Assembly: GCA_017686895.1 (NCBI GenBank)
Contig: GCA_017686895.1_4521.1
DNA length: 64,000 nt
DNA from: a phage
Direction: 5' to 3' (one strand)
Position numbers and translations under genes: made by a program. Numbering within the stretch: position 1 is the stretch's first letter; each line of letters opens with the position of its first letter. Of this stretch, positions 1,450 to 18,735 are shown one piece after another. The notes beneath the pieces were generated by a model. It worked only from the letters and a program-made list of their open reading frames with translations. It was not told where the DNA came from and made no database searches.

Positions 1450-4161
1450 ATGAAAGAATTTTACTTAACGGTTGAACAGATTGGTGATTCAATTTTTGAA
1501 CGTTACATCGATTCTAATGGCCGTGAACGTACTCGTGAAGTAGAATATAAACCATCACTGTTTGCTCATTGTCCAGAAAGTCAGGCTACGAAATATTTCG
1601 ATATCTACGGTAAGCCGTGTACTCGTAAGTTGTTCGCTAATATGCGTGATGCCTCCCAATGGATTAAACGCATGGAAGATATCGGACTTGAAGCACTTGG
1701 CATGGACGATTTCAAATTGGCGTATTTGTCTGACACTTATAACTATGAAATCAAATACGACCATACAAAAATTCGTGTGGCTAACTTCGACATCGAAGTA
1801 ACATCTCCGGATGGGTTCCCTGAGCCGTCACAAGCAAAACATCCAATTGATGCTATCACCCATTATGACTCAATTGATGACAGGTTCTACGTATTTGATC
1901 TATTGAATTCTCCATATGGTAATGTAGAAGAATGGTCTATTGAAATCGCTGCTAAGCTTCAAGAACAAGGTGGTGATGAAGTTCCATCTGAAATTATCGA
2001 TAAAATCATTTATATGCCATTCGATAATGAAAAAGAATTGTTGATGGAATATCTCAACTTCTGGCAACAGAAAACTCCTGTCATTTTGACTGGATGGAAC
2101 GTTGAGTCATTTGATATTCCATATGTGTATAACCGAATCAAGAATATTTTTGGCGAATCTACTGCGAAACGTTTATCACCACATCGTAAAACTCGTGTTA
2201 AAGTTATCGAAAACATGTATGGTTCTCGTGAAATCATTACATTGTTCGGTATCTCTGTTCTTGATTATATCGACCTTTACAAAAAATTCTCTTTCACAAA
2301 CCAACCGTCGTATTCTCTGGATTACATTTCAGAATTTGAATTGAATGTCGGTAAACTGAAATATGACGGTCCTATTTCTAAACTTCGTGAAAGTAATCAC
2401 CAACGATATATTTCTTATAACATTATCGACGTGTATCGTGTATTGCAAATTGATGCTAAACGCCAGTTCATCAACTTGAGTTTGGACATGGGTTATTATG
2501 CTAAGATACAGATTCAATCTGTGTTTAGCCCAATTAAAACATGGGATGCTATTATTTTTAATAGCCTTAAAGAGCAGAACAAGGTGATTCCACAAGGTCG
2601 TTCTCACCCGGTTCAACCTTATCCTGGCGCTTTTGTTAAGGAACCTATTCCAAATCGATACAAATATGTAATGAGTTTCGACCTTACATCTCTGTATCCA
2701 AGTATTATTCGCCAAGTGAATATTAGCCCAGAAACAATAGCAGGAACGTTTAAAGTAGCTCCATTGCATGATTATATTAACGCAATCGCTGAACGTCCTT
2801 CAGATGTGTACAGTTGCTCTCCTAACGGCATGATGTATTATAAAGACCGTGACGGTGTAGTTCCAACCGAAATCACCAAGGTCTTTAATCAACGTAAAGA
2901 ACATAAAGGTTATATGCTTGCTGCTCAACGTAACGGTGAAATAATTAAAGAGGCATTGCATAATCCTAATCTTTCTGTTGATGAACCATTAGATGTTGAT
3001 TATCGTTTCGACTTCACTGACGAGATTAAAGAAAAGATTAAAAAGTTGTCTGCTAAATCTCTTAATGAAATGTTGTTTAGAGCTCAACGTACTGAAGTTG
3101 CAGGTATGACTGCCCAAATTAACCGTAAATTGCTCATCAACTCGCTTTATGGTGCACTTGGCAACGTTTGGTTCCGTTATTACGATTTGCGTAATGCTAC
3201 TGCAATCACAACATTTGGTCAAATGGCTTTACAATGGATTGAACGTAAAGTTAATGAATATCTGAATGAAGTTTGTGGTACAGAAGGTGAAGCTTTCGTT
3301 CTTTATGGTGATACAGACTCTATTTACGTATCTGCTGATAAAATTATCGATAAGGTTGGTGAATCTAAATTCCGTGATACCAACCATTGGGTAGACTTCT
3401 TAGATAAGTTCGCACGTGAACGTATGGAACCAGCTATTGATAAAGGTTTCCGTGAAATGTGTGAATACATGAACAATAAACAACACTTAATGTTCATGGA
3501 CCGAGAAGCTATCGCTGGTCCTCCGCTTGGTTCTAAAGGTATTGGTGGATTCTGGACTGGTAAGAAACGTTATGCATTAAACGTGTGGGATATGGAAGGA
3601 ACTAGATACGCTGAGCCTAAACTCAAAATCATGGGTCTAGAGACTCAGAAATCTTCGACCCCTAAAGCAGTACAGAAAGCTCTTAAAGAATGTATTCGTC
3701 GTATGCTTCAAGAAGGTGAAGAATCATTACAAGAATATTTTAAAGAGTTTGAAAAAGAATTCCGTCAATTGAATTATATTAGCATCGCGTCGGTATCTTC
3801 TGCGAATAACATTGCTAAATATGATGTAGGTGGATTCCCTGGTCCTAAATGTCCGTTCCATATTCGTGGAATTCTGACATATAACCGAGCTATCAAAGGT
3901 AATATTGATGCTCCACAAGTTGTAGAAGGTGAAAAAGTATATGTTCTGCCTTTACGTGAAGGAAACCCATTCGGTGATAAATGTATCGCATGGCCTTCTG
4001 GTACTGAAATCACAGATTTAATTAAAGACGACGTACTTCATTGGATGGACTACACTGTTCTCCTTGAGAAGACATTTATTAAACCACTTGAAGGATTCAC
4101 ATCAGCAGCGAAACTCGATTACGAGAAGAAAGCATCTCTGTTCGATATGTTCGATTTTTGA
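1450..4161 (+). CDS. 43: DNA polymerase gp43 (family B)
   Basis: 903 aa; sequence matches recalled RB69 gp43 (MKEFYLTVEQIGDSIFERYIDSNGRERTREVEYKPSLFAHCPES..., exo motifs FDIEV and YNIIDV, YGDTDS, KKRY). Confidence 0.97.
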   Translation: MKEFYLTVEQIGDSIFERYIDSNGRERTREVEYKPSLFAHCPESQATKYFDIYGKPCTRKLFANMRDASQWIKRMEDIGLEALGMDDFKLAYLSDTYNYEIKYDHTKIRVANFDIEVTSPDGFPEPSQAKHPIDAITHYDSIDDRFYVFDLLNSPYGNVEEWSIEIAAKLQEQGGDEVPSEIIDKIIYMPFDNEKELLMEYLNFWQQKTPVILTGWNVESFDIPYVYNRIKNIFGESTAKRLSPHRKTRVKVIENMYGSREIITLFGISVLDYIDLYKKFSFTNQPSYSLDYISEFELNVGKLKYDGPISKLRESNHQRYISYNIIDVYRVLQIDAKRQFINLSLDMGYYAKIQIQSVFSPIKTWDAIIFNSLKEQNKVIPQGRSHPVQPYPGAFVKEPIPNRYKYVMSFDLTSLYPSIIRQVNISPETIAGTFKVAPLHDYINAIAERPSDVYSCSPNGMMYYKDRDGVVPTEITKVFNQRKEHKGYMLAAQRNGEIIKEALHNPNLSVDEPLDVDYRFDFTDEIKEKIKKLSAKSLNEMLFRAQRTEVAGMTAQINRKLLINSLYGALGNVWFRYYDLRNATAITTFGQMALQWIERKVNEYLNEVCGTEGEAFVLYGDTDSIYVSADKIIDKVGESKFRDTNHWVDFLDKFARERMEPAIDKGFREMCEYMNNKQHLMFMDREAIAGPPLGSKGIGGFWTGKKRYALNVWDMEGTRYAEPKLKIMGLETQKSSTPKAVQKALKECIRRMLQEGEESLQEYFKEFEKEFRQLNYISIASVSSANNIAKYDVGGFPGPKCPFHIRGILTYNRAIKGNIDAPQVVEGEKVYVLPLREGNPFGDKCIAWPSGTEITDLIKDDVLHWMDYTVLLEKTFIKPLEGFTSAAKLDYEKKASLFDMFDF

Positions 4162-4201: not shown

Positions 4202-4837
4202 ATGAAAACTACACCAATCACTATCGCTATTGACGCAATCGTAAAACAAGCTTCTTCTTTGGCTACTATGGCCAAAGTAATTAGTCAAAACCCTGCTCGT
4301 TATAATGCTATTCTAGAAACTCTTCGACGCCCTGGACTGAGTAATTATGAAAGCCGAGTAATTATTACAGGTGTTGGTAAGAACGCTAATATCGCAACTA
4401 AAGCTTCCGAGACTTTTGCTTCACTAGGTATTCCTAGCATGTATTTGAACACCGGGCATTATTCTCATGGCGACGCAGGGTTTATTGCACCTAATGATGT
4501 ATTAGTTCACATCAGTCGTTCTGGTAAGACTGAAGAAATGATAGGTGTTGCTAAACATCTTCGTATGATTCGTCCTCAGGTTAAACAGATTCTGTTACAT
4601 TGTAACCCTGACATTCCGCAAGAATACGAAGCTCTTTTTGATTATACGTTCTGTACAGGCATCGCGGTAGAGGTTGATGAGAATTCTCTGGCTCCGACCA
4701 TGTCCACTACATTGTTGTTAGCGCTTATCGATACGTTTGCTATCAACCTTTCGTCTGAACGTGGATTTACCTCTAATGACTTCCTTAAGTTCCACCCTGG
4801 TGGTGCACTAGGTGCCATGTTACGAGGCGAACAATGA
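4202..4837 (+). CDS. SIS-domain sugar-phosphate isomerase, arabinose-5-phosphate isomerase (KdsD/GutQ)-like
   Basis: SIS motifs VGKNANIATKASETF, HGDAGF, VLVHISRSGKTEE resemble KdsD-type API rather than GmhA. Confidence 0.7.
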   Translation: MKTTPITIAIDAIVKQASSLATMAKVISQNPARYNAILETLRRPGLSNYESRVIITGVGKNANIATKASETFASLGIPSMYLNTGHYSHGDAGFIAPNDVLVHISRSGKTEEMIGVAKHLRMIRPQVKQILLHCNPDIPQEYEALFDYTFCTGIAVEVDENSLAPTMSTTLLLALIDTFAINLSSERGFTSNDFLKFHPGGALGAMLRGEQ

Positions 4838-4977
4838 AAGCAATAACAATAGGACTTTTACTATTGATGCTTGTCATGACTATCTACTGGAGCTTAACGG
4901 CTCCAGTAATGATTCCGACTCTTATAATCGGATGGATTATGATTGGACTACAAACAAAGTATGAATGCTTTAACTAG
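4834..4977 (+). CDS. Small hydrophobic protein (47 aa), not in ORF track
   Basis: ATG overlaps the upstream TGA (ATGA coupling); translation MKAITIGLLLLMLVMTIYWSLTAPVMIPTLIIGWIMIGLQTKYECFN is almost entirely membrane-like. Confidence 0.35.
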   Translation: MKAITIGLLLLMLVMTIYWSLTAPVMIPTLIIGWIMIGLQTKYECFN

Positions 4978-5018
4978 AATAGTGTACAATACACCTACTT
5001 ACCAATGAGGACCACAAC

Positions 5019-6704
5019 ATGAAAAAAGCTGTTATTCTTGGTGCTGGACTGGCAACTCGTTTGTATCCAATAACGCACCATATTCCTAAGGTGCTTGTTA
5101 ACTATAAACAAGACACTATTCTGAGCAATTTGTATACAATTTATTCTGACCTTGGTGCAGATGAAATTATTGTAGTAGTTCATTCAAAATTTGTTGAAAC
5201 TGTTCGAGCTTATTGTGAGCAAGAAGGGTTCAATGTGACTATTCGTACAGTTGATGAAGCGTATGGTTCTGCTTATGCTCTTGCTAAATTATACAAAGAT
5301 TTAGATGGCCATAACGTAATTGTTAACTGGTGTGATATTATTCCTGATTTTGGTTCATGGTCTTGGAATGTTAACGCAATCTATGTTAAGGGTGATGAAT
5401 GTCGATATAATTTCGATGGTGAAAATATCACTAACGTAGGTTCAACAGGCGGTAATGTTGTAGGAATTTATCAGTTCAAAGACTGGGAATTCTATATGGG
5501 TTCTACTGATGAGGAAATTCATGAATACTGCAAAGGGCGTGATTTCGTAGAATTCCTTTACGGCAGTGCATTCAATAAATCAGAGCTTATGAATCTAATT
5601 GATTTAGGTGATATGCCTAAACTTGAAAAAGCTCATGAAGTTCGTGAACTTAATCGTAGTTTTAATGCAGTTGAAATTGGTGAAGAAACTGTAACTAAAT
5701 TCGCATTAACCGAACAGGGACGAGCTCTTCAGAAAGATGAGATTTCGTGGTATCTTAAAGTGAAATCAGATTCAGTTCCTCAGTTAGTTTCTGTTAATGA
5801 AAATAACTTTGAAATGGAACGCATTAAAGGTAAGCCAGCATTTGAATATATTAAATCCAAATCAAGTCTTGCTCGTCCACAAATTGTTGATGCAATTTTA
5901 GATGCACTGAAATTCAGCACAGACACTTATTTTGTAAGTCCTGAAACTGTTCGTCGTGATTTCACTAAAGAATTCTATACGAAAGTTATTGATCGTTGTG
6001 AAAGCATTCAACCATTGATTGATTCATTTGGTAAAATCACACATGTGAACTACACTAAGATTGGACGTCTGAAGCCAATGCTGAAACAAGCTTTAGAACA
6101 CCTTATTCGTTATCATAACCGTTCTCAGGGACAGTACTCTGTTATTCATGGTGACCCGAACTTCAGTAATACTATGATTACTGATAACGGCGAAGTCAAG
6201 TTTATCGACCCTCGTGGATATTTTGGCGAAACCAAGATTTACGGGCCAAAATTGTACGATGAAGCTAAAGTGCTTTATGCTGTTTCAGGTTATGATGAAT
6301 TCAATGCTAATCCGACCTGGGGACAGTTTACTATTGATGAAACAACTTGTAATGTGACTATTAACATCAATCCATTAATTTACAAATATGGAAAGATGAG
6401 TTCGTTTAACGAGTATCATCATTTGGCGGTGGCAATTATCTGGATTGCATTAGGTGGTTATTTCAAGAATAATCCACTTAAAGCGGTAGCCGCATATTAT
6501 AAAGGTATGGAACTTCTGACTAAGCAATTACGCAACATGGGCCGTGTACTTCAAGACGGCTCTATTAGTTATGACGTAGCAGAACCTGTAACGGCTACTC
6601 TGATTACAAAAAATCCTGGTAAATGGGTACTAACTGATAAAGAAACTGGTGTTTCCTATCGTCCAATCGGTGGCGATATCACTCATCAATGGGAACGAAT
6701 CTAA
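5019..6704 (+). CDS. Bifunctional sugar-1-phosphate nucleotidyltransferase / APH-like sugar kinase
   Basis: N-terminal ILGAGLATRL nucleotidyltransferase motif; C-terminal HGDPNFSN...IDPRG kinase motifs (aminoglycoside/choline kinase fold). Confidence 0.7.
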   Translation: MKKAVILGAGLATRLYPITHHIPKVLVNYKQDTILSNLYTIYSDLGADEIIVVVHSKFVETVRAYCEQEGFNVTIRTVDEAYGSAYALAKLYKDLDGHNVIVNWCDIIPDFGSWSWNVNAIYVKGDECRYNFDGENITNVGSTGGNVVGIYQFKDWEFYMGSTDEEIHEYCKGRDFVEFLYGSAFNKSELMNLIDLGDMPKLEKAHEVRELNRSFNAVEIGEETVTKFALTEQGRALQKDEISWYLKVKSDSVPQLVSVNENNFEMERIKGKPAFEYIKSKSSLARPQIVDAILDALKFSTDTYFVSPETVRRDFTKEFYTKVIDRCESIQPLIDSFGKITHVNYTKIGRLKPMLKQALEHLIRYHNRSQGQYSVIHGDPNFSNTMITDNGEVKFIDPRGYFGETKIYGPKLYDEAKVLYAVSGYDEFNANPTWGQFTIDETTCNVTININPLIYKYGKMSSFNEYHHLAVAIIWIALGGYFKNNPLKAVAAYYKGMELLTKQLRNMGRVLQDGSISYDVAEPVTATLITKNPGKWVLTDKETGVSYRPIGGDITHQWERI

Positions 6705-7090
6705 TGCACCGTGTAGAAAACATGCTTAATCTTTGTTTTGATGTCGATGATTGTATAACAGAGTGGAATAACAATCGTGATTACGTGAACTTCAAACCAG
6801 ACGTCGAAATGGTGTCTGCCATTAATGCCCTGTATGATGCAGGGCATACCATAACGCTTTACACTGCTCGTGGTATGAAGTCAGTAGGTCCTGGTCGTAT
6901 AGCAATTGACATTCTCCCAAGTCTGATTCAGAACTTGGCAAACATTGGCTTGAAGTACCATAATTTGCTAACACATAAACCAGTATATGATTGGATTATC
7001 GACGACAAAGCTATGCGTCCTGACGAATTCAAAGCTCTTATGAATAAAGGCGAATTCGAAACATTTAAATCATATAAACCGAATCTATAA
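6704..7090 (+). CDS. HAD-superfamily phosphatase-like protein
   Basis: FDVDDCIT (DxD motif I), LYTAR, K...DWIIDDK; TAATG overlap with upstream gene; track start 6689 is an alternative. Confidence 0.5.
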   Translation: MHRVENMLNLCFDVDDCITEWNNNRDYVNFKPDVEMVSAINALYDAGHTITLYTARGMKSVGPGRIAIDILPSLIQNLANIGLKYHNLLTHKPVYDWIIDDKAMRPDEFKALMNKGEFETFKSYKPNL

Positions 7091-7136
7091 TAATTTAAGT
7101 AAGACCTGCAAAAACCATCGCATCAATTAACGCGAG

Positions 7137-8306
7137 ATGCAAAAAATGAATACTTTTAAAATCGGAACGAATTTTGATTTAGCTCTTCTTGATAAAATCG
7201 TAGAGCTCAATAAAACCTATCCTAATAGCTTGATAAACGAAGTATATGGCTCTACAAGAGAAATGGCTTTTGTAGCAGCCAGACCTGATTTTAGGCTTCC
7301 TGACGTTGACAAAAAGATGTTAGAAGATTACGTTAAACGTTGTAACGAATTAGGTATTTGCTTTAACTATACACTCAACACGATAAATCCTGGTTCAAAA
7401 AGAGAACTAGTTGAGTGGAAGAAGAAAGCTATTCAGGATTATGTTCAGTATCTTTGGTCAATAGGCGTATGGCGTATTACTATCGCTAACCCTGTTGTTA
7501 TGGAAATTGTTCGTGAAGTCAATAAAGATATTGAGATTGAAGTTTCAACAATTCTACATGTCGATGCGGTAACTCAAATCAAATACTTACATGACCAATA
7601 TAACATCAAAAAGGTCTGTTGCGGAATTCATAAGAACCGTTCAGTTTCTTTCCTGAAGCGTGCAGCAGAGTTTTGCAATAAGAACAATATAATATTTGAA
7701 GTTCTTGTAAATGAGTTCTGTTCTAATGCTGGTAAAGGGTATACAACACATTGTAGTTATCGTGACTCTTGCTATATTTTCCATAGTACTGATGTTACAG
7801 CTGATGATGCTAAATCCTTAAATGGATATCCAATGCAACACTGCATTAAAGCTCGTGATACAGACCCATTTAACTGGTTGAGAACTCGTTTTGTTCGTCC
7901 TCAAGATTTGAAACTTTATAATGATATTGGTATCACTCAATTCAAAGTTTCAGGACGTACAGGTAGCACAGACTACATTTTGAAAGTTCTTGAAGCATAC
8001 GCTTCTGAAAAGTTTGAAGGTAATTTGTTAGAACTGTGGAAGCCTTTAGAGACTATTTTCACTCTTGAAAATGAGACTGAGTTTTCACATACAGTAAATA
8101 TTGAAACCTCTTTGTTAGATGGCTTTTTAGAAAAAAGGTGGTTCAGACATCCAGATTTTGATTGTGCTAATGAAATCTGTGGGTCAACGTGTACATATTG
8201 TGAAAGGTATTATAAACGTCAATTATCTAAAAACGGGTTAGCAGAAAACTCCATATCTATTATTGATATAACTAACTCTGATGACGCTTTGAGGTACCCG
8301 GAATGA
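7137..8306 (+). CDS. Cys-rich protein of unknown function; weak resemblance to peptidase U32-family TIM-barrel proteins
   Basis: 389-aa ORF in the cassette; motifs NEVYGS, FKVSGRTGSTDY and clustered Cys (CxxxxGxGxxxxC, CANEICGSTCTYC); family assignment from memory only. Confidence 0.5.
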   Translation: MQKMNTFKIGTNFDLALLDKIVELNKTYPNSLINEVYGSTREMAFVAARPDFRLPDVDKKMLEDYVKRCNELGICFNYTLNTINPGSKRELVEWKKKAIQDYVQYLWSIGVWRITIANPVVMEIVREVNKDIEIEVSTILHVDAVTQIKYLHDQYNIKKVCCGIHKNRSVSFLKRAAEFCNKNNIIFEVLVNEFCSNAGKGYTTHCSYRDSCYIFHSTDVTADDAKSLNGYPMQHCIKARDTDPFNWLRTRFVRPQDLKLYNDIGITQFKVSGRTGSTDYILKVLEAYASEKFEGNLLELWKPLETIFTLENETEFSHTVNIETSLLDGFLEKRWFRHPDFDCANEICGSTCTYCERYYKRQLSKNGLAENSISIIDITNSDDALRYPE

Positions 8307-8584: not shown

Positions 8585-9301
8585 ATGGGAAAACATAACA
8601 CAATGAAATATATCAAAGCCGCAGATTTTCAAACCGCATTTAAAGCAGTCAATCGTGAAATTTTAGAAAACCCCGAATTCGTAACTGATTCTCGTATTGG
8701 ACGTTGTAATGAAATTGGGTCTATGACAGTAGTTGTTGACACTCCATCATCATTCAAAATGACCGACCCACGTATTAACCGCATCTCTTATGAATATGCC
8801 GAAGACTTCTGGAAGTTTATGATTTCTGGTGGTACCAACGCAGAAGAAGCGTTTAAGGCATATCCTAATGTCGCTAAATTTATTTCTAAACCAAAATCAG
8901 ATGTTTTGCCGGCGAACTTCAACACTTTCTATGGTCCTCGCATTGCGGCCCAATTACCAACTCTTCTAAAAGAACTTAAAGAAAAACCTAACTCTCGAAG
9001 AGTTGTGTTCCAAATTCTAGAAAGTTCTGATCAGGCTTTGCTTGATTCGGACGAAACACTTGAATATCCATGTACTGACTCAGTAACTTATTATATTCGT
9101 GATGGTAAGCTTTATACCCACTGTCATATGCGTTCTCAGAACTGTGCTGTTGTTATGCAGTTGGATTTTTATCTCCAAGGAAAATTACTTCATTATATCG
9201 CTAACGAATGCGGTGTAGAAGTTGGTGATTATACTCATACCATGGTAAGTGCCCATGTGTTTGAACGTGATTTTGATTATGTTAAAGGATTCCTTGACTA
9301 A
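8585..9301 (+). CDS. 42: Thymidylate-synthase-fold deoxycytidylate hydroxymethylase-like enzyme (gene 42 position)
   Basis: TS-fold motifs NSRRVVFQI, YPCTDSVTYYIRDG (catalytic Cys), Asp at the pyrimidine-specificity position (QLDFY) as in dCMP hydroxymethylase; more divergent from recalled T4 gp42 than neighbouring core genes. Confidence 0.6.
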   Translation: MGKHNTMKYIKAADFQTAFKAVNREILENPEFVTDSRIGRCNEIGSMTVVVDTPSSFKMTDPRINRISYEYAEDFWKFMISGGTNAEEAFKAYPNVAKFISKPKSDVLPANFNTFYGPRIAAQLPTLLKELKEKPNSRRVVFQILESSDQALLDSDETLEYPCTDSVTYYIRDGKLYTHCHMRSQNCAVVMQLDFYLQGKLLHYIANECGVEVGDYTHTMVSAHVFERDFDYVKGFLD

Positions 9302-12364: not shown

Positions 12365-13807
12365 GTGGTAGAAATTATTTTGTCTCATCTAGTATACGAC
12401 CAGGCTTATTTTTCTAAGGTCTGGCCTTATATGGATTCTGACTATTTTGAGCGTGGACCGGCAAAAAATGTCTTTAAAATTATAAAGAGCCACGTTAACG
12501 AATATAATGCAATGCCATCTATCAATGCGTTAAAGGTGGCTTTAGATAACAGTTCTTTAACTGAAGCCGAATATAAAGGAACTTCAGACCTAATTGAAAA
12601 ATTGGCTGATACTCCTGAAGACCATGAATGGTTGGTTAAAGAAACTGAGAAATATATCCAGCAAAAAGCGATGTATAATGCTACATCCAAAATCATTGAG
12701 ATTCAGTCTAATGCTGAACTACCTCCGGAACAACGTAACAAGAAAATGCCTGACGTAGGAGCTATTCCTGATATTATGCGTCAAGCACTTTCAATTTCGT
12801 TCGATAGTTATGTTGGGCATGACTGGATGGAAGACTATGAAGCACGTTGGCTTTCTTATCTAAATAAAGCACGTAAGGTCCCGTTCAAATTAAACATTTT
12901 GAATAAAATCACCAAAGGCGGCGCAGAAACAGGTACACTAAACGTTTTAATGGCTGGTGTTAACGTCGGTAAATCTTTAGGCCTTTGTTCACTTGCTGCA
13001 GATTATCTTCAAACAGGTCATAATGTTCTTTATATTTCCATGGAAATGGCTGAAGAAGTTTGTGCTAAGCGTATAGATGCAAACATGCTTGACGTATCAC
13101 TCGATGATATCGATGATGGTAACATATCTTATGCTGAATATAAAGCCAAGATGGAAAAATGGCGTTCAAAAACAACATTAGGACGTTTAGTAGTTAAACA
13201 GTATCCTACTGGCGGAGCTAATGCTAATACATTCCGTGCATTGCTTAATGAGTTAAAACTTAAGAAGAACTTTGTGCCATCTGTAATCATGGTTGATTAC
13301 TTAGGTATTTGTGGGTCTTGTCGTATCAGAGTTTACACTGAAAATAGCTACACATTAGTTAAAGCTATCGCAGAAGAACTTCGTGCATTAGCAGTAGAAT
13401 CTGAAACAGTTCTATGGACTGCAGCTCAAGTAGGACGTGCAGCATGGGATGCTTCAGACATGAACATGAGTGATATCGCAGAATCAGCAGGTTTACCAGC
13501 AACGGCAGATTTCATGTTGGCTGTAATTGAAACCGAAGAACTTGCACAAGCTGAACAACAACTTATCAAACAAATCAAATCACGATACGGCGATAAGAAT
13601 AAGTGGAATAAATTCCTGATGGGTGTACGTAAAGGCAATCAGAAATGGGTTGAGATTGAGCAAGAAGGCATGAACACACCTAACACAGTAAATGAAAACG
13701 CAGGTGCTCAGATGCGTCAGGCAGAGGTGAATCGTACGGAACGCGTAGGTAAAGCCAAAGCAACACGTGCTGACCTAGATAGCTTAGCCAATGAGTTAAA
13801 ATTTTAA
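12365..13807 (+). CDS. 41: Replicative DNA helicase gp41 (DnaB-like)
   Basis: 480 aa; starts MVEIILSHL like T4 gp41; GTG start codon 7 nt after AAGGAG. Confidence 0.93.
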   Translation: MVEIILSHLVYDQAYFSKVWPYMDSDYFERGPAKNVFKIIKSHVNEYNAMPSINALKVALDNSSLTEAEYKGTSDLIEKLADTPEDHEWLVKETEKYIQQKAMYNATSKIIEIQSNAELPPEQRNKKMPDVGAIPDIMRQALSISFDSYVGHDWMEDYEARWLSYLNKARKVPFKLNILNKITKGGAETGTLNVLMAGVNVGKSLGLCSLAADYLQTGHNVLYISMEMAEEVCAKRIDANMLDVSLDDIDDGNISYAEYKAKMEKWRSKTTLGRLVVKQYPTGGANANTFRALLNELKLKKNFVPSVIMVDYLGICGSCRIRVYTENSYTLVKAIAEELRALAVESETVLWTAAQVGRAAWDASDMNMSDIAESAGLPATADFMLAVIETEELAQAEQQLIKQIKSRYGDKNKWNKFLMGVRKGNQKWVEIEQEGMNTPNTVNENAGAQMRQAEVNRTERVGKAKATRADLDSLANELKF

Positions 13808-13813
13808 TAAAAA

Positions 13814-13829
13814 GGAGACTTCGGTCTCC
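13814..13829 (+). terminator. UUCG-tetraloop hairpin (GGAGAC-TTCG-GTCTCC) after gene 41
   Basis: Perfect 6-bp stem, TTCG loop, followed by TTT. Confidence 0.5.
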
Positions 13830-13836
13830 TTTCGGG

Positions 13837-13866
13837 GTTTACATCTTCCTCTAGGCATGATATGAT
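13837..13866 (+). promoter_or_regulatory. Early-type promoter GTTTAC-N18-TATGAT
   Basis: Spacer contains TTCCTCT, complementary to the downstream SD AGAGGAA (13883-13889). Confidence 0.5.
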
Positions 13867-13895
13867 GTACTTACACAAACCAAGAGGAAAACATT

Positions 13896-14270
13896 ATGAA
13901 TATGTCTCAAGCAATTTTTACTGCAATCACCGAAAACACAACTGTTGAAGTAGTTTCTCCGCTGGCAACCTACGTTATTCTTGCTCCTAAAACTATTGTA
14001 TCTCGTATGGAAAACACAGGCAAACGTATCGTACAAATAGTTGGAGCTGGAAATCAAAAACTTGATTATCTACGAACCATCAAAGCTTACGAACATTTCC
14101 AACTCGAAAAAGGTTCTCCTATCCAGGTAGAACTCGTAAATGGTGATATCGTTCGAGCAATGTTCCATCATTTCTATGCATTGAATGACCCATCTAAAGC
14201 GGTTCGTTTAATTGCATATGACGCAAACCAAAACGAAATCAACGCAGATATATCTAAATTACATTTTTAA
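13896..14270 (+). CDS. Hypothetical protein
   Basis: 124-aa ORF with SD AGAGGAA. Confidence 0.5.
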   Translation: MNMSQAIFTAITENTTVEVVSPLATYVILAPKTIVSRMENTGKRIVQIVGAGNQKLDYLRTIKAYEHFQLEKGSPIQVELVNGDIVRAMFHHFYALNDPSKAVRLIAYDANQNEINADISKLHF

Positions 14271-14299
14271 GTTTACTTCTCCAGTAGTTGTGTTATTAT
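14271..14299 (+). promoter_or_regulatory. Early-type promoter GTTTAC-N17-TATTAT embedded in a 12-bp inverted repeat
   Basis: Arms CTCCAGTAGTTG (14279-14290) and CAACTACTGGAG (14308-14319) flank the -10; the downstream arm contains the SD. Confidence 0.55.
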
Positions 14300-14325
14300 A
14301 GACCTATCAACTACTGGAGAACAAA

Positions 14326-14643
14326 ATGAAAACCATCGATTGTAAAGCAGAATTTAAGATTTTTTATCACGGTTCAAGTAGTTCAGCTAACATCGAAAAC
14401 ATGCTTTGTCCTCCTGAAGAAACAGGAGTTCTGTCTGAAACTGGACGTAAGAAAAACTTGGATCGTGTATTCTTTACTGAAGATATCGGTTTAGCAAAGA
14501 TTTATGCAGGACGAGCAGCACGCTCTTATGGAGGTGAACCACGTCTCTATCGAGTAATTTCTCCGGTAGATGTAGTTCAAATGAATGATACTAAAGGCGC
14601 TACAGTTTATCACGCTGAATGGGCATTTTGCGAGGAAATATGA
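14326..14643 (+). CDS. Hypothetical protein
   Basis: 105-aa ORF. Confidence 0.5.
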   Translation: MKTIDCKAEFKIFYHGSSSSANIENMLCPPEETGVLSETGRKKNLDRVFFTEDIGLAKIYAGRAARSYGGEPRLYRVISPVDVVQMNDTKGATVYHAEWAFCEEI

Positions 14644-14831
14644 GCAAATTAACTAAAGTTACTTTTATCGGTTGGTTTAAAAGCGGTGAGATGTTCACTA
14701 AAGATATCATGTTATCAGGTGATCGCGAAGAAATCGAGTGGGTTACGGTACAACTTGCTGAAGTGAACAATGCATTAGTTAAAGCATTTATTAATGACGA
14801 GAAAGTTTTTGAAGCTGATTTCAGAGGATAA
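14640..14831 (+). CDS. Small protein, possibly Dmd (61.5)-like antitoxin
   Basis: 63 aa from ATG 14640 (SD GAGGAAA, ATGA overlap); position next to gene 41 and motifs KVTFIGWF, NALVKAFI resemble my uncertain recollection of T4 Dmd. Confidence 0.35.
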   Translation: MSKLTKVTFIGWFKSGEMFTKDIMLSGDREEIEWVTVQLAEVNNALVKAFINDEKVFEADFRG

Positions 14832-14832
14832 T

Positions 14833-15045
14833 ATGTATTCAACTGTGTTTAAACCATCAACATACGAATTTGCATCAACTACACAATGGAAAGCTCTTAT
14901 TCTGGAAGGATGGGAACTAATGATGGACTGCGAAGCATCTGAAAAGTTTCCACACGGCAAAGTGGACTTCGTTAAATTTGCTGTACGTCCGACTAAACGA
15001 CAGATTCGTCAAGAAAAACGCAAATTTCGAAAAAGTTTAAAATAG
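14833..15045 (+). CDS. Hypothetical protein
   Basis: 70 aa from ATG 14833 (SD GAGGA); basic C-terminus. Confidence 0.4.
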   Translation: MYSTVFKPSTYEFASTTQWKALILEGWELMMDCEASEKFPHGKVDFVKFAVRPTKRQIRQEKRKFRKSLK

Positions 15046-15047
15046 CT

Positions 15048-15077
15048 GTTTACAAGCACCACATACTGTGTTACTAT
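15048..15077 (+). promoter_or_regulatory. Early-type promoter GTTTAC-N18-TACTAT
   Basis: Followed by the CTATCAACTAC element shared with the 14300 promoter. Confidence 0.4.
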
Positions 15078-15105
15078 CTTTCTATCAACTACAGAGGAAA
15101 TTGAA

Positions 15106-15474
15106 ATGAAAAAATTAATCGCTTTAGCAATGGTATTTGGATTAACCGGATGTGGTGCCCATGGCTTTATCCCTAATAACGTCGGCCAATTGATTTACAA
15201 TCCGAATGTTAAACAGTACGACCAACCTAAAGTTGAAGTGGAAGACCCGGTTACTGTAGGTAATCGAATGATTCAAGCTGATGCCCATGCTCAACGTTAT
15301 CGTGACTCTGATACCGTAGCATTGTCAAAAGAACAACGCGTTAAAGAACATTGTCTACAGGCTACTGAAATCGCATTCATTCGCTATGTTGAAACAACTG
15401 GTAAAGAGCCTACCCAGAAACAAATCGCGAATAACTACGTCCAGTGTATTGAACGTTTAAACAAATTTAATTAA
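15106..15474 (+). CDS. Putative lipoprotein
   Basis: Signal peptide with lipobox LTGC (MKKLIALAMVFGLTGCG). Confidence 0.6.
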   Translation: MKKLIALAMVFGLTGCGAHGFIPNNVGQLIYNPNVKQYDQPKVEVEDPVTVGNRMIQADAHAQRYRDSDTVALSKEQRVKEHCLQATEIAFIRYVETTGKEPTQKQIANNYVQCIERLNKFN

Positions 15475-15535
15475 TTGGTTTACACCAAAGTTAAAATAAG
15501 ATACTATAAACATAACAAATCAAGAGGAAATTAAC

Positions 15536-15784
15536 ATGGAATTATTCGTAGCTAGTTCAGTAGCAGTTTTAATCGCAGGTATTGGTTCAATCATCATTTA
15601 CATGTTGCCTTGGGTAATCGCACTTATTCGTGGCACAAAAAGCACAACAGCAATCTTCTTTGTATCTTTACTCTTTAACTGGACGATGGTTGGTTGGATT
15701 GGAACTTTAATTTGGTCTATCGTTGCCGAAAAGAAATCTGCTCAGCAGCCTCAACAAGTAATTATTATTCGCGAAAAAGAATAA
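15536..15784 (+). CDS. Superinfection-immunity (Imm)-family small membrane protein
   Basis: YMLPWVIALIRG...NWTMVGWIGTLIWSI matches the Imm-family signature as I recall it. Confidence 0.55.
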   Translation: MELFVASSVAVLIAGIGSIIIYMLPWVIALIRGTKSTTAIFFVSLLFNWTMVGWIGTLIWSIVAEKKSAQQPQQVIIIREKE

Positions 15785-15788
15785 ACTT

Positions 15789-15818
15789 GTTTACATTATA
15801 GATGGACTATAGTATAGT
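15789..15818 (+). promoter_or_regulatory. Early-type promoter GTTTAC-N18-TATAGT
   Basis: Followed by AGTCCTATCAA box; imperfect inverted repeat GGACTA/TAGTCC around the -10. Confidence 0.45.
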
Positions 15819-15847
15819 AGTCCTATCAAATTAACTAAGGAGTTAAA

Positions 15848-16141
15848 ATGAAAAAGTTATCATTGGCAGCAATCTTACTTGCAGTATCATGTGCACCGGC
15901 TCCAGTTACGGCAGGTTATGATAAAGACCTCTGTGAGTGGTCAATGACTGCAAATCAAGAAGATGTTGAACAACAAATCTTCTCTGATATCATGAACATC
16001 ACTAAACGAGACCGTCCTAATATGGTTAATAAAGTTGTTGAACAACTTAAGTCTGGCGGTATCATGCAGTACAATTATGTTTTGTATTGTGACCCTAATT
16101 TCGATAACAAAGATATCGTAACCGAAATCACAGGTGAATAA
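15848..16141 (+). CDS. Secreted small protein, Spackle (sp/61.3)-like by size and position
   Basis: 97 aa with N-terminal signal peptide (MKKLSLAAILLAVSCAPA); T4 sp is about this size in this interval. Confidence 0.4.
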   Translation: MKKLSLAAILLAVSCAPAPVTAGYDKDLCEWSMTANQEDVEQQIFSDIMNITKRDRPNMVNKVVEQLKSGGIMQYNYVLYCDPNFDNKDIVTEITGE

Positions 16142-16793
16142 TATGATTTATTACATGCACAAAAACGCACCATTTAAATATGGTAAATTTCCTAATGCAC
16201 AATGTTATAATATAACGCCGAACGAAAATAATAACGGATATCATATTGGTGTAATTTTTGTAATTGTTAAAGATAACGAAATCGTTGCCTGGGCCGATTT
16301 TAAAGGTACAACATATGATGTTAATCCTGTGCCTTTCACATATTACAATATAATGGATTTGGCATATGATTATAATTGGTTTAATCATGACGCGTTGGCT
16401 CATATTGAAGGTGTAGGATTTGACATCTCTTATTCTAGCTATTCATTATGTCCTATGAGCAGGGCTCATGGTAAAGATGCATCATATCTTTCATTTCGGA
16501 AACGTGTAAACTTCAAACGTAGTACAGAGTATGTTGGCGGACTCTTTGTTAAAGATAATAAAATAACCCGTATTAGTTATCCTTTAAGTGTAGGTCAAAA
16601 AGATGTTGATGTTGATTTAGACTTAACTGAAAATAACATTAATCGTATTGCTTCTGTATATTTTGATATCGATGAAAAAATTGTAGTGTGTGGATACGAA
16701 TTACCACCTGAAGAAAAGGCTGAAGCAGTTGAAGTCGAATTAGAAATTTCTGTTGATGACCAAATATTTAATGCATTTATGAATCGAGGTTAA
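16134..16793 (+). CDS. Hypothetical protein (61.2 position)
   Basis: 219-aa ORF. Confidence 0.5.
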   Translation: MNNMIYYMHKNAPFKYGKFPNAQCYNITPNENNNGYHIGVIFVIVKDNEIVAWADFKGTTYDVNPVPFTYYNIMDLAYDYNWFNHDALAHIEGVGFDISYSSYSLCPMSRAHGKDASYLSFRKRVNFKRSTEYVGGLFVKDNKITRISYPLSVGQKDVDVDLDLTENNINRIASVYFDIDEKIVVCGYELPPEEKAEAVEVELEISVDDQIFNAFMNRG

Positions 16794-16794
16794 A

Positions 16795-16992
16795 ATGACT
16801 ACTGCAATTTGCACTGGTTCTAAAATTAGTGTTTTTACAAGTTTTGAAGATTATGAAGTTGTTTCAAAACACCAACGCCATATTAGCGTAAAAGCTAATG
16901 ACGGTGTAATTTGGAATATTCCACAGTATGAAGGCACTACATATGAAGTCACAGATATAAATGGTGACAAAGCAATCTTTGTAATTGATTAA
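16795..16992 (+). CDS. Hypothetical protein
   Basis: 65-aa ORF. Confidence 0.4.
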   Translation: MTTAICTGSKISVFTSFEDYEVVSKHQRHISVKANDGVIWNIPQYEGTTYEVTDINGDKAIFVID

Positions 16993-17011
16993 ATATACTC
17001 AGGAGGTACCT

Positions 17012-17479
17012 ATGGGTATTATTAACACTGCAATAGATTCTGTTTACGCATATAAGTTTATTCGACTAATGCAAAAACCTTTTACTGAATGGAAAGCGTA
17101 TGAAGCCAAAATCATCGATGAACGTGGGAGTGTTCTTAAACGCCCTTCCACTCCTGAAGAGAAAGCGGCTTATACACCTTTTCATGCTTCAGTTCGTTCA
17201 ATGAAGCGAATGATGAGCACTGTTCCAGGTCTTAATGGAATGGCCTCAATGATGTCTGCCTGGAGTGCTGTAGCTTCACGCTATAACATTACGGAAGAAC
17301 AACAGAAAGAAATATTTAAAGAACTCCCTTTATTTGAGGATATGGTTGCTGGTGATTCAGGTGGCAGCCCTCAAGCTATTGCATCAGGAACAACTACAGG
17401 TGCAGTAGTAAATAAAGGTCCAGAACAAATTCCTTCCAAGAAAAGAAAGCGAATTAAAGTAAATATTAATAAGTTGTGA
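17012..17479 (+). CDS. Hypothetical protein
   Basis: 155 aa from ATG 17012 (SD AGGAGG). Confidence 0.5.
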   Translation: MGIINTAIDSVYAYKFIRLMQKPFTEWKAYEAKIIDERGSVLKRPSTPEEKAAYTPFHASVRSMKRMMSTVPGLNGMASMMSAWSAVASRYNITEEQQKEIFKELPLFEDMVAGDSGGSPQAIASGTTTGAVVNKGPEQIPSKKRKRIKVNINKL

Positions 17480-17518
17480 TATGATGGCCTTATTAATTTA
17501 AGGCCTCTGGAGAATACT

Positions 17519-18541
17519 ATGGCTGAATGGATAGATAATGAATTTGCTTATCGTGCGTTTTCTCACCTACCTCGTTTTAGACAAATCAATAATTCAAGCA
17601 CATTTAAATTAACATTTCGATGTCCAGTTTGTGGCGACTCCCAGACAGATGCAATGAAAGCTCGCGGATGGTATTATGGTGGAACTCCAGGTAATGTGCA
17701 TTGCTATAACTGTCAATATCATAATACAATTTCCGGATACTTAAAAGAGTATGATGAAGAGCTTTATCGCGAATATCTAATGGAAGTTCGTAAAGAAAAA
17801 GCTAGAATGGAACCAAAGATTGAAAAGGTTCCTGAAGCTAAGCCGGAACCAGAGAAAAAGACTATAAATTCTTTGCCGTCTTGTTCTCGTCTGGACAAGC
17901 TGCCCGAAGAGCATCCTATTGTGAAATATGTTAAGTCTCGGTGTATTCCTAAAGAATCATGGAACAGATTATGGTTCACATTAGAATGGCCTAAATTGGT
18001 CAACAAGATTCAACCTGGTACGTATAAGAAAGAGATTCCCGAACCACGTTTAGTGATTCCTATTTTTAATAAAGATGGGAAGGCCGAGTCATTCCAAGGA
18101 CGTGCACTTCGTAAAGATGCTCCTCAGAAATATATCACTATTAAAGCGTTTGAGTCTGCAACAAAAATTTATGGTGTTGAACGTGTTAAGGAAGGGGACG
18201 TCTGGGTAATGGAAGGCCCTATTGATAGTTTATTCATACCCAATGCAATCGCTATTACAGGCGGCTCGATAGATTTAGATGTGGTACCATTTAAAGAACG
18301 TCGGGTATGGGTAATGGATAATGAACCTAGGCATCCGGATACTATAGCTCGTATGAAGCGATTAGTTGATGCAGGCGAACGTGTCATGTTCTGGGACCGA
18401 GCTCCATGGAGATCAAAGGATGTGAATGATATGGTAATGAAAGAAAATGCAACACCACAAGAAATTTTAGAATATATGAAACAGAATATTTCAAGTGGGT
18501 TGCATGCTAAAATGAGATTATCTCGTTATTCGAAGATTTAA
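17519..18541 (+). CDS. 61: DNA primase gp61
   Basis: 340 aa; zinc-ribbon CPVCGDSQTD...CYNCQYHN; syntenic with T4 61. Confidence 0.9.
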   Translation: MAEWIDNEFAYRAFSHLPRFRQINNSSTFKLTFRCPVCGDSQTDAMKARGWYYGGTPGNVHCYNCQYHNTISGYLKEYDEELYREYLMEVRKEKARMEPKIEKVPEAKPEPEKKTINSLPSCSRLDKLPEEHPIVKYVKSRCIPKESWNRLWFTLEWPKLVNKIQPGTYKKEIPEPRLVIPIFNKDGKAESFQGRALRKDAPQKYITIKAFESATKIYGVERVKEGDVWVMEGPIDSLFIPNAIAITGGSIDLDVVPFKERRVWVMDNEPRHPDTIARMKRLVDAGERVMFWDRAPWRSKDVNDMVMKENATPQEILEYMKQNISSGLHAKMRLSRYSKI

Positions 18542-18735
18542 ACAAGCCCTATAATAGCAAAGGCCAAATCAACTACAGTATCCAATGGAACAGAAGGAAC
18601 TATAATACCATGGGCAACTAACAATGGTGCAATCCCGAAGTTCCATGAAATAATGCCACCTACAACTATTGCAGCGATGGCAGTTTTCTTTTTATTGCCT
18701 TTAATAGCGTTGATTAACGACGGAAGTTTAAACAT
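18538..18735 (-). CDS. Small hydrophobic protein on the minus strand
   Basis: 65-aa ORF with strong SD (AAGGAG 7 nt upstream), two predicted membrane segments; convergent with gene 61. Confidence 0.4.
   Translation of the reverse strand: MFKLPSLINAIKGNKKKTAIAAIVVGGIISWNFGIAPLLVAHGIIVPSVPLDTVVDLAFAIIGLV

Follow-up and report, generated by a model that had tools for sequence, protein, structure and literature searches.

This report concerns the interval between helicase gene 41 and primase gene 61, chiefly positions 14326-16141, of a 64,000-nt stretch of phage DNA (GenBank assembly GCA_017686895.1, contig GCA_017686895.1_4521.1), hereafter the window. A first-pass annotation made from the letters alone had placed four genes here: a possible Dmd-like antitoxin at 14640, a lipoprotein with lipobox LTGC at 15106, an Imm-family membrane protein at 15536 and a secreted Spackle-like protein at 15848. 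All four genes lie at these positions, on the + strand and between genes 41 and 61, and chance does not account for the evidence behind them. Two open reading frames inside the same interval had been left undescribed, at 14326-14643 (resembling an ADP-ribosyltransferase, ART) and 14833-15045 (gp61.4, DUF7279). The anti-defence content is also larger than had been described: the ART-like gene, ORF040c, precedes dmd, and adfA directly follows sp, so that this content reaches past 16141. The genes and features are collected in Table 1.

The stretch from gene 41 to gene 61 (13800-17600) was compared with a phage collection by megablast. Each of 155 records covers at least 80% of the query, and the top matches are Mosigvirus genomes with 98-99% DNA identity over 3.8 kb, including vB_Eco_mar005P1, JS09, ST0 and other RB69 relatives. 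Judged by these matches, the window belongs to an RB69-like T-even coliphage (Mosigvirus, RB69/JS09-like), and the genes under study sit in its gene 41-61 interval. The annotation of the matched genomes gives the gene string 41 helicase, RB69ORF041c, RB69ORF040c, dmd, 61.4, imm.1, imm, sp, 61.2, RB69ORF033c, 61.1 and 61 primase. The genes dmd, imm.1, imm and sp are thus already named in GenBank records of phages that are 98-99% identical, and their recognition here is correct but ordinary. None of the first-pass proposals is new beyond existing annotation, and the ART-Dmd neighbourhood is likewise already in print; what the exercise mainly shows is that T-even accessory genes can be recognised from raw sequence alone. 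Annotation of the genes themselves goes back to the publication of the RB69 genome, and superinfection exclusion and antitoxin mimicry are known in textbook form from their T4 orthologs. A tRNA scan of the whole window found no tRNA genes, no Rfam family matched anywhere in it at the gathering threshold, and an NCBIfam scan of ten proteins of the locus returned noise only.

Table 1. Genes and transcription features of the gene 41-61 interval, in window positions
Feature	Positions	Strand	Description
Hairpin GGAGAC-TTCG-GTCTCC	13814..13829	+	Perfect stem, UUCG tetraloop; 7 nt past gene 41 stop, just before the 13837 promoter
Early-type promoter of ORF041c	13837..13866	+	GTTTACA-N17-TATGAT; -10 ends 30 nt before ATG at 13896
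ORF041c homolog	13896..14270	+	124 aa; phrog_10668 E 3e-85, no Pfam match; RB69ORF041c-like in JS09
Early-type promoter of ORF040c-dmd-61.4	14271..14299	+	GTTTAC-N17-TATTAT; -10 ends 27 nt before ATG at 14326
ORF040c homolog	14326..14643	+	105 aa; minimal ADP-ribosyltransferase fold (predicted), Arr-like; phrog_2110
dmd	14640..14831	+	63 aa; predicted antitoxin mimic against RnlA/LsoA HEPN RNases
gp61.4 homolog (DUF7279)	14833..15045	+	70 aa, basic C-terminus; Pfam E 3.5e-20; 57% identity to T4 gp61.4
Early-type promoter of imm.1	15048..15077	+	GTTTACA-N17-TACTAT
imm.1 (DUF5481)	15106..15474	+	122 aa; predicted lipoprotein
Early-type promoter of imm	15478..15507	+	GTTTACA-N17-TACTAT
imm	15536..15784	+	82 aa; predicted inner-membrane superinfection immunity protein
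Early-type promoter of sp, probably also of the tightly packed following genes	15789..15818	+	GTTTACA-N17-TATAGT
sp (spackle)	15848..16141	+	97 aa; predicted secreted periplasmic inhibitor of tail-spike gp5 lysozyme
61.2 = adfA	16143..16793	+	Anti-DarT factor A, RB69-type R164 allele; Pfam AdfA
ORF033c homolog	16795..16992	+	65 aa; phrog_3249 E 3e-33; annotated in JS09
gp61.1 homolog	17012..17479	+	155 aa; phrog_2086 E 1e-73

Exclusion and counter-defence genes

The Dmd assignment is borne out by the Pfam family of that name (PF17587), which residues 4-63 match over profile positions 3-60 with an E value of 1.3e-21 and 77.2 bits against a cut-off of 27. Among solved structures the protein is near-identical to PDB 5i8j (E 2.6e-38) and matches the T4 Dmd of the LsoA complex (5hy3_B, E 6e-18); its identity to T4 Dmd is 57%. 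Dmd takes the place of the decaying antitoxins of RnlA and LsoA (PMC8266594). By analogy, the protein encoded here would bind these HEPN RNase toxins after their labile antitoxins have decayed, and phage mRNA would thereby be protected.

The N-terminus of Imm.1, MKKLIALAMVFGLTGC, is composed of a basic n-region (MKK), a hydrophobic h-region (LIALAMVFG) and the lipobox L-T-G-C named in the first-pass annotation, which conforms to the pattern [LVI][ASTVI][GAS]C with Cys16 as the lipobox cysteine and Gly at +2. The protein scores 37.3 bits with Pfam DUF5481, the Imm.1 family (cut-off 27), and has one hydrophobic segment, at the N-terminus. T4 Imm.1, with 33% identity, carries L-A-G-C at the same position, homolog P0273 has LTGC, and C83 and C114 are invariant. 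Searches for Imm.1 homologs gave only two clades, a Mosigvirus type (at least 95% identity) and a Tequatrovirus type (about 33%), with one intermediate sequence. In E. coli, Gly at +2 leads to sorting to the outer membrane; under this +2 rule Imm.1 is most likely a lipoprotein of the outer membrane that faces the periplasm. Two observations weigh against this assignment. In homolog P0271 the lipobox Cys is replaced by Phe, and the lipid anchor may therefore be dispensable. The AlphaFold2 model, built on a four-sequence alignment, is poor, with a predicted local distance difference test (pLDDT) score of 59.6; residues 1-56 fall below 50, and residues 75-120 are helical at 85-89.

Imm itself matches Pfam Imm_superinfect (PF14373; E 1.8e-15, 56.9 bits against a cut-off of 27.9) and phrog_1039, and is 65% identical to T4 Imm from end to end. 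Kyte-Doolittle windows above 1.6 delimit two hydrophobic blocks, at residues ~1-35 and ~40-60, in agreement with the membrane protein proposed at this position. By analogy with T4, Imm would sit in the inner membrane and stop DNA entry from a second T-even phage. A duplication of imm.1 and imm was considered and rejected, as both are single-copy in the window.

The gene imm.1 lies directly upstream of imm, between 61.4 and sp. T4 has the same two genes in the same order at a different genome position, between genes 43 and 42 and 11 nt apart. Adjacency kept at both genomic positions suggests a functional link, and Imm.1 would travel with imm as a two-gene cassette. The constant company of imm.1 and imm provides a testable lead, namely a role for Imm.1 as third exclusion component, located in the cell envelope. 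In the window, the slot that holds imm.1-imm in T4, between gp43 DNA polymerase (1450-4161) and gp42 dCMP hydroxymethylase (8585-9301), is occupied at 4202-8306 by genes for a SIS-domain protein, a 561-aa nucleotidyl-transferase and a U32-like protein. The three are probable sugar-nucleotide genes, underlying arabinosyl-hydroxymethylcytosine DNA of the RB69 type (PMC6024577).

In the Spackle protein, Sp, residues 1-96 match Pfam T4_Spackle (PF25676) with E 1.1e-42 and 145 bits, and the alignment with T4 Sp is gapless at 66% identity. In the PDB it matches 6x6o (E 1.4e-39), and its residues 23-97 correspond to the mature 75-aa chain of 7cn6. The N-terminus consists of MKK and a hydrophobic stretch, with a predicted signal peptide at residues 1-22, as expected of the secreted protein that had been proposed. 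The disulfide C29/C81 and the gp5-lysozyme contacts S32, M33, T34, A35, Q37 and N76, as named in PMC7677548, are all conserved (8/8). Sp inhibits the gp5 lysozyme of superinfecting phage (PMC7677548); the exported protein would, by the same mechanism, bind the lysozyme domain of incoming gp5 and so block penetration of the cell wall. Residues 12-15 of the signal peptide (15881-15892) form a lipobox-like A-V-S-C, which is L-A-S-C in T4. The mature protein is nevertheless reported to begin at residue 23, and the crystallised chain begins there too (PMC7677548; 7cn6).

The next gene, adfA, starts 1 nt past the sp stop codon. Its product matches Pfam AdfA (PF23813) with E 1e-120 and 401 bits, residues 1-216 on a 211-position profile, and is 69% identical to T4 gp61.2. 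AdfA of this family would bind the DNA ADP-ribosyltransferase DarT. At position 164, numbered from the MHKN start, the window phage has Arg and T4 has His, the residue required for action on DarT1. In RB69, AdfA with Arg164 fails both to bind and to neutralise DarT1; the His164 form, that of T4 and of RB69 escape mutants, does both (PMC11257639). The window protein is a member of the family but is predicted to be inactive against the tested DarT1, and the R164 allele predicts sensitivity of the phage to DarTG1 unless another factor compensates.

Early-type promoters and the independence of the units

The window was searched for the early-promoter pattern GTTTAC-N16-19-TAnnnT, which occurs 21 times against 4.4 expected. 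Five sites fall within 13837-15818, about 2 kb, and all five are intergenic; the one at 13837 lies just outside the interval of the first-pass annotation. At each of them the -10 element ends 27-30 nt upstream of an ATG with a GAGG-type ribosome-binding site. An early-type promoter of its own had been proposed for each of the four genes, and this is upheld for imm.1, imm and sp. It does not apply to dmd, which has no promoter of its own and shares the one upstream of ORF040c; no other part of the first-pass observation fails. The dmd ATG overlaps the ORF040c stop codon (ATGA, 14640-14643), so that dmd would be read from the ORF040c promoter; since 61.4 in turn begins 1 nt past the dmd stop codon, ORF040c, dmd and 61.4 are expected to form one translationally coupled unit. 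The region would accordingly be laid out as five back-to-back early units: ORF041c; ORF040c-dmd-61.4; imm.1; imm; and sp-adfA-ORF033c-61.1. Because the T4 early-type promoter of each unit lies about 28 nt upstream of the Shine-Dalgarno sequence and ATG, all of the products are expected within minutes of infection. The hairpin between the gene 41 stop codon and the first of these promoters is a probable transcript-end or stabilising hairpin, and was not flagged by a simple terminator scan because its T run is short.

The first-pass annotation had described the cluster as a module for superinfection exclusion and toxin counter-defence. The functions stand, by homology to characterised T4 proteins: homology in profile searches, on which the proposal had been staked, was found in the form of strong matches for Dmd, Imm and Spackle. 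The units, on the other hand, appear independent and would hardly make up a single module. That the four or five genes are an integrated, interdependent machine would fit their tight clustering and shared early timing, and in this genus imm.1-imm adjoins sp, which brings the two exclusion functions side by side. Each gene or small operon nevertheless has its own promoter, and in T4 imm.1-imm lies ~6 kb away while sp and dmd remain between genes 41 and 61. Nor do the targets have anything in common, being RnlA/LsoA, gp5 lysozyme, the site of DNA entry and DarT, and published assays show the T4 proteins working singly (PMC7677548 for Sp). An integrated module is therefore very unlikely. Taken together, we conclude with a probability of about 0.9 that the interval is a plastic accessory region between the genes for the replicative helicase (41) and the primase (61), in which independent early functions have gathered and do not make up one machine. 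Two considerations count against this conclusion: the transcription starts and operon structure are predictions from consensus sequences, and all of the mechanisms are carried over from T4 and RB69 homologs at 33-69% identity.

ORF040c, a small protein of predicted ADP-ribosyltransferase fold

The 105-aa product of ORF040c matches nothing in Pfam, in NCBIfam or, by sequence, in the PDB. Searches of the PDB with the single sequence and with a profile gave nothing meaningful, and only fold comparison was productive: the solved structures nearest to it are Arr, Tpt1/KptA and AcrF11, and by this comparison the protein has an ART fold. Homologs number 149 clusters and occur, at 60-99% identity, in 610 phage records that span Escherichia, Klebsiella, Acinetobacter, Aeromonas and Vibrio as hosts; invariant residues include H15-G16, E38, G40-R41, F49, T51, Y60 and E103. 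A few GenBank records already name the gene 'ADP-ribosyl transferase'. A literature search for 'RB69ORF040c' returned no papers, and no experimental study of the family was found.

A profile search of 1.84 billion representatives yielded 222 distant relatives, many of them stand-alone proteins of ~100 aa and others domains within larger proteins, the largest of 3,924 aa. Ten relatives score above the cut-off of Pfam Arr-ms (PF12120, 25 bits) on the homologous stretch, with P0132, P0149 and P0127 at 27-29 bits. The window protein itself has no Arr-ms match at E<=0.1, and three of 36 orthologs reach only E 0.026. By these profile scores ORF040c belongs to a family related to Arr-ms and is not a member of it. 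Alignment of the two families by hhalign is weak (E 0.017, probability 2.7%) and was used for motif correspondence alone; in it H15 stands opposite H19 of Arr, F49 opposite Y49 and E38-x-G-R41 opposite E40-x-G-R43.

Conservation over long distances is concentrated in the putative NAD pocket. Across 94 distant representatives H15, G16, [T/S]17, E38, R41, F49, T51, Y60 and G69-G70 are conserved at 96-100%, with H15 present in 94/94, Y60 in 100%, E38 in 99% and F49, at the position of the canonical Tyr, in 98%. The F49/Y60 spacing of 11 is the same as in diphtheria toxin (Y54/Y65) and PARP1 (Y896/Y907). For the acidic residue there are two candidates: E38, in the E-x-G-R motif shared with Arr, and E103, which is invariant in the orthologs of T4-like phages only; the equivalent of Arr Asp84 is not conserved. 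In relatives the domain stands beside ART-PolyVal (a second ART), NUDIX, GNAT, Toprim, lambda-type portal and 2H/Acb1-like domains, a setting that by sequence is the 'polyvalent protein' context of injected phage effectors. We conclude that ORF040c is a minimal Arr-related protein of ART fold with an intact NAD-pocket signature.

Most likely it would act as an NAD+-using, Arr-like mini ADP-ribosyltransferase, early and on a conserved target. The existence of two candidates for the acidic catalytic residue, E38 and E103, speaks against this assignment. That ambiguity, the replacement of the canonical Tyr of the H-Y-E triad by F49, the very small size of the protein (105 aa) and the richness of the region in anti-defence proteins of binder type (Dmd, AdfA) would also suit a catalytically dead ART-fold binder or decoy, for example one that sequesters signals derived from NAD+, or DarT or another host ART. 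Such a decoy is unlikely, given the strict conservation of the NAD-pocket signature in the 94 distant representatives (H-G-[ST], the F49/Y60 pair and the E-x-G-R shared with Arr) and the occurrence of the domain in polyvalent proteins beside other enzymes (NUDIX, GNAT, a second ART).

ORF040c and dmd are adjacent and overlapping in the window and in other Mosigviruses, an arrangement that would also fit a phage-borne type II toxin-antitoxin pair in which ORF040c is the ART toxin and Dmd the cognate antitoxin. A pairing of 'ART toxin + Dmd antitoxin' has been predicted by Iyer, Burroughs, Anantharaman and Aravind (2022) for a p0068-like viral ART family (PMC9503650, section 3.7.1). ORF040c is apparently the p0068-family ART, a match made from the published description. 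The distributions of the two genes differ. The ART occurs in 610 phage records, including 116 of Klebsiella, 68 of Acinetobacter and 62 of Aeromonas phages; Dmd occurs in 799 records, the ten commonest organism names listed being nearly all Escherichia, Shigella, Yersinia and Salmonella phages, with Klebsiella, Acinetobacter and Aeromonas absent among those ten. Pfam scans seeking hidden Dmd-like partners gave no Dmd match among the neighbours of the ART in RB16 (near srd/rnlB), 44RR2.8t (near hoc/30.6), Acj61 (near a nicotinamide phosphoribosyltransferase gene and sp) and Vibrio phage 501E54-1 (among hypothetical genes), four phages of other genera in which the gene lies in other plastic regions. 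In T4, conversely, dmd has a promoter of its own and the ART is absent. The two genes are therefore paired in a single lineage only, and the case for an obligate toxin-antitoxin relationship is weakened. An addiction module would moreover be of no obvious use to a lytic phage, and 60-70% identity of the ART across genera fits a conserved target better than a fast-evolving toxin. A cognate pair thus appears improbable.

The reading of ORF040c as an enzyme can be extended, tentatively and at somewhat less than even odds, to a catalytically active Arr-like ART that is made in the first minutes of infection and acts on a conserved target, either a host component or a nucleic acid, in host takeover or counter-defence. 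In most phages it would do so without Dmd, and in Mosigviruses it would have been placed in the dmd operon. If this is true, ORF040c would be a fourth type of T-even ART, distinct from the Alt/Mod type. The gene is widespread, highly conserved and uncharacterised, and is the one gene of this locus that merits experiment.

Two arrangements among the relatives are recorded here in their own right. P0166, a metagenomic protein of 954 aa, is a fusion of a lambda-type portal, an ORF040c-like ART domain at residues 692-784 and, at the C-terminus, a 2H/Acb1-like phosphoesterase domain, and looks like an injected multi-effector. In Acinetobacter phage Acj61, an ORF040c-type ART lies ~1 kb downstream of the NAD+ salvage gene for nicotinamide phosphoribosyltransferase and is followed downstream by sp, 61.1 and 61; this order may link an NAD+-consuming enzyme with NAD+ supply.

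Comparison with known systems

Each of the solved structures nearest to ORF040c differs from it in its own way. Relative to Arr (PF12120; PDB 2hw2, 9iaf), ORF040c is ~40 residues shorter and is without the Arr C-terminal helices, and nothing suggests rifamycin as its substrate in a lytic coliphage. The likeness to AcrF11, an anti-CRISPR ART (PDB 6kyf), is at the level of the fold only, with 21% identity over 75 residues; the two occur in different hosts and different gene contexts, and nothing indicates that ORF040c targets a defence protein. The RNA 2'-phosphotransferase Tpt1/KptA is built of two lobes, an N-terminal RNA-binding lobe and an NAD+ lobe, an architecture that ORF040c does not share.

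For Imm.1 the nearest parallels are the exclusion lipoproteins of the T5 Llp and lambdoid Cor type, which are likewise early phage lipoproteins adjoining exclusion genes and provide a lead for action of Imm.1 at the outer membrane or in the periplasm. The likeness is by gene context alone, and receptor blocking is not ascribed to Imm.1.

In T4 the 41-61 region contains orthologs of dmd, 61.4, sp, 61.2/adfA and 61.1 in the same order, at 57-69% protein identity and with early promoters of the same type. T4 is without ORF041c, ORF040c (the ART) and ORF033c, and the early promoter of its dmd lies directly between gene 41 and dmd. The gp61.1 of the window is 155 aa long, against 54 aa in T4; its C-terminal ~55 residues alone match the T4 protein, and the additional N-terminal 100 aa match a separate family, phrog_18642. 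Farther along, between primase gene 61 and dCTPase gene 56, a 65-aa hydrophobic open reading frame on the - strand (18538-18735) is a homolog of RB69ORF029w without a family match.

The closest counterpart is the 41-61 region of RB69 and JS09, which is identical to that of the window in genes, order, strand and spacing. DNA identity is 98.3% to JS09 and 99% to vB_Eco_mar005P1; point differences are all that separates these regions, and they represent practically the same locus.

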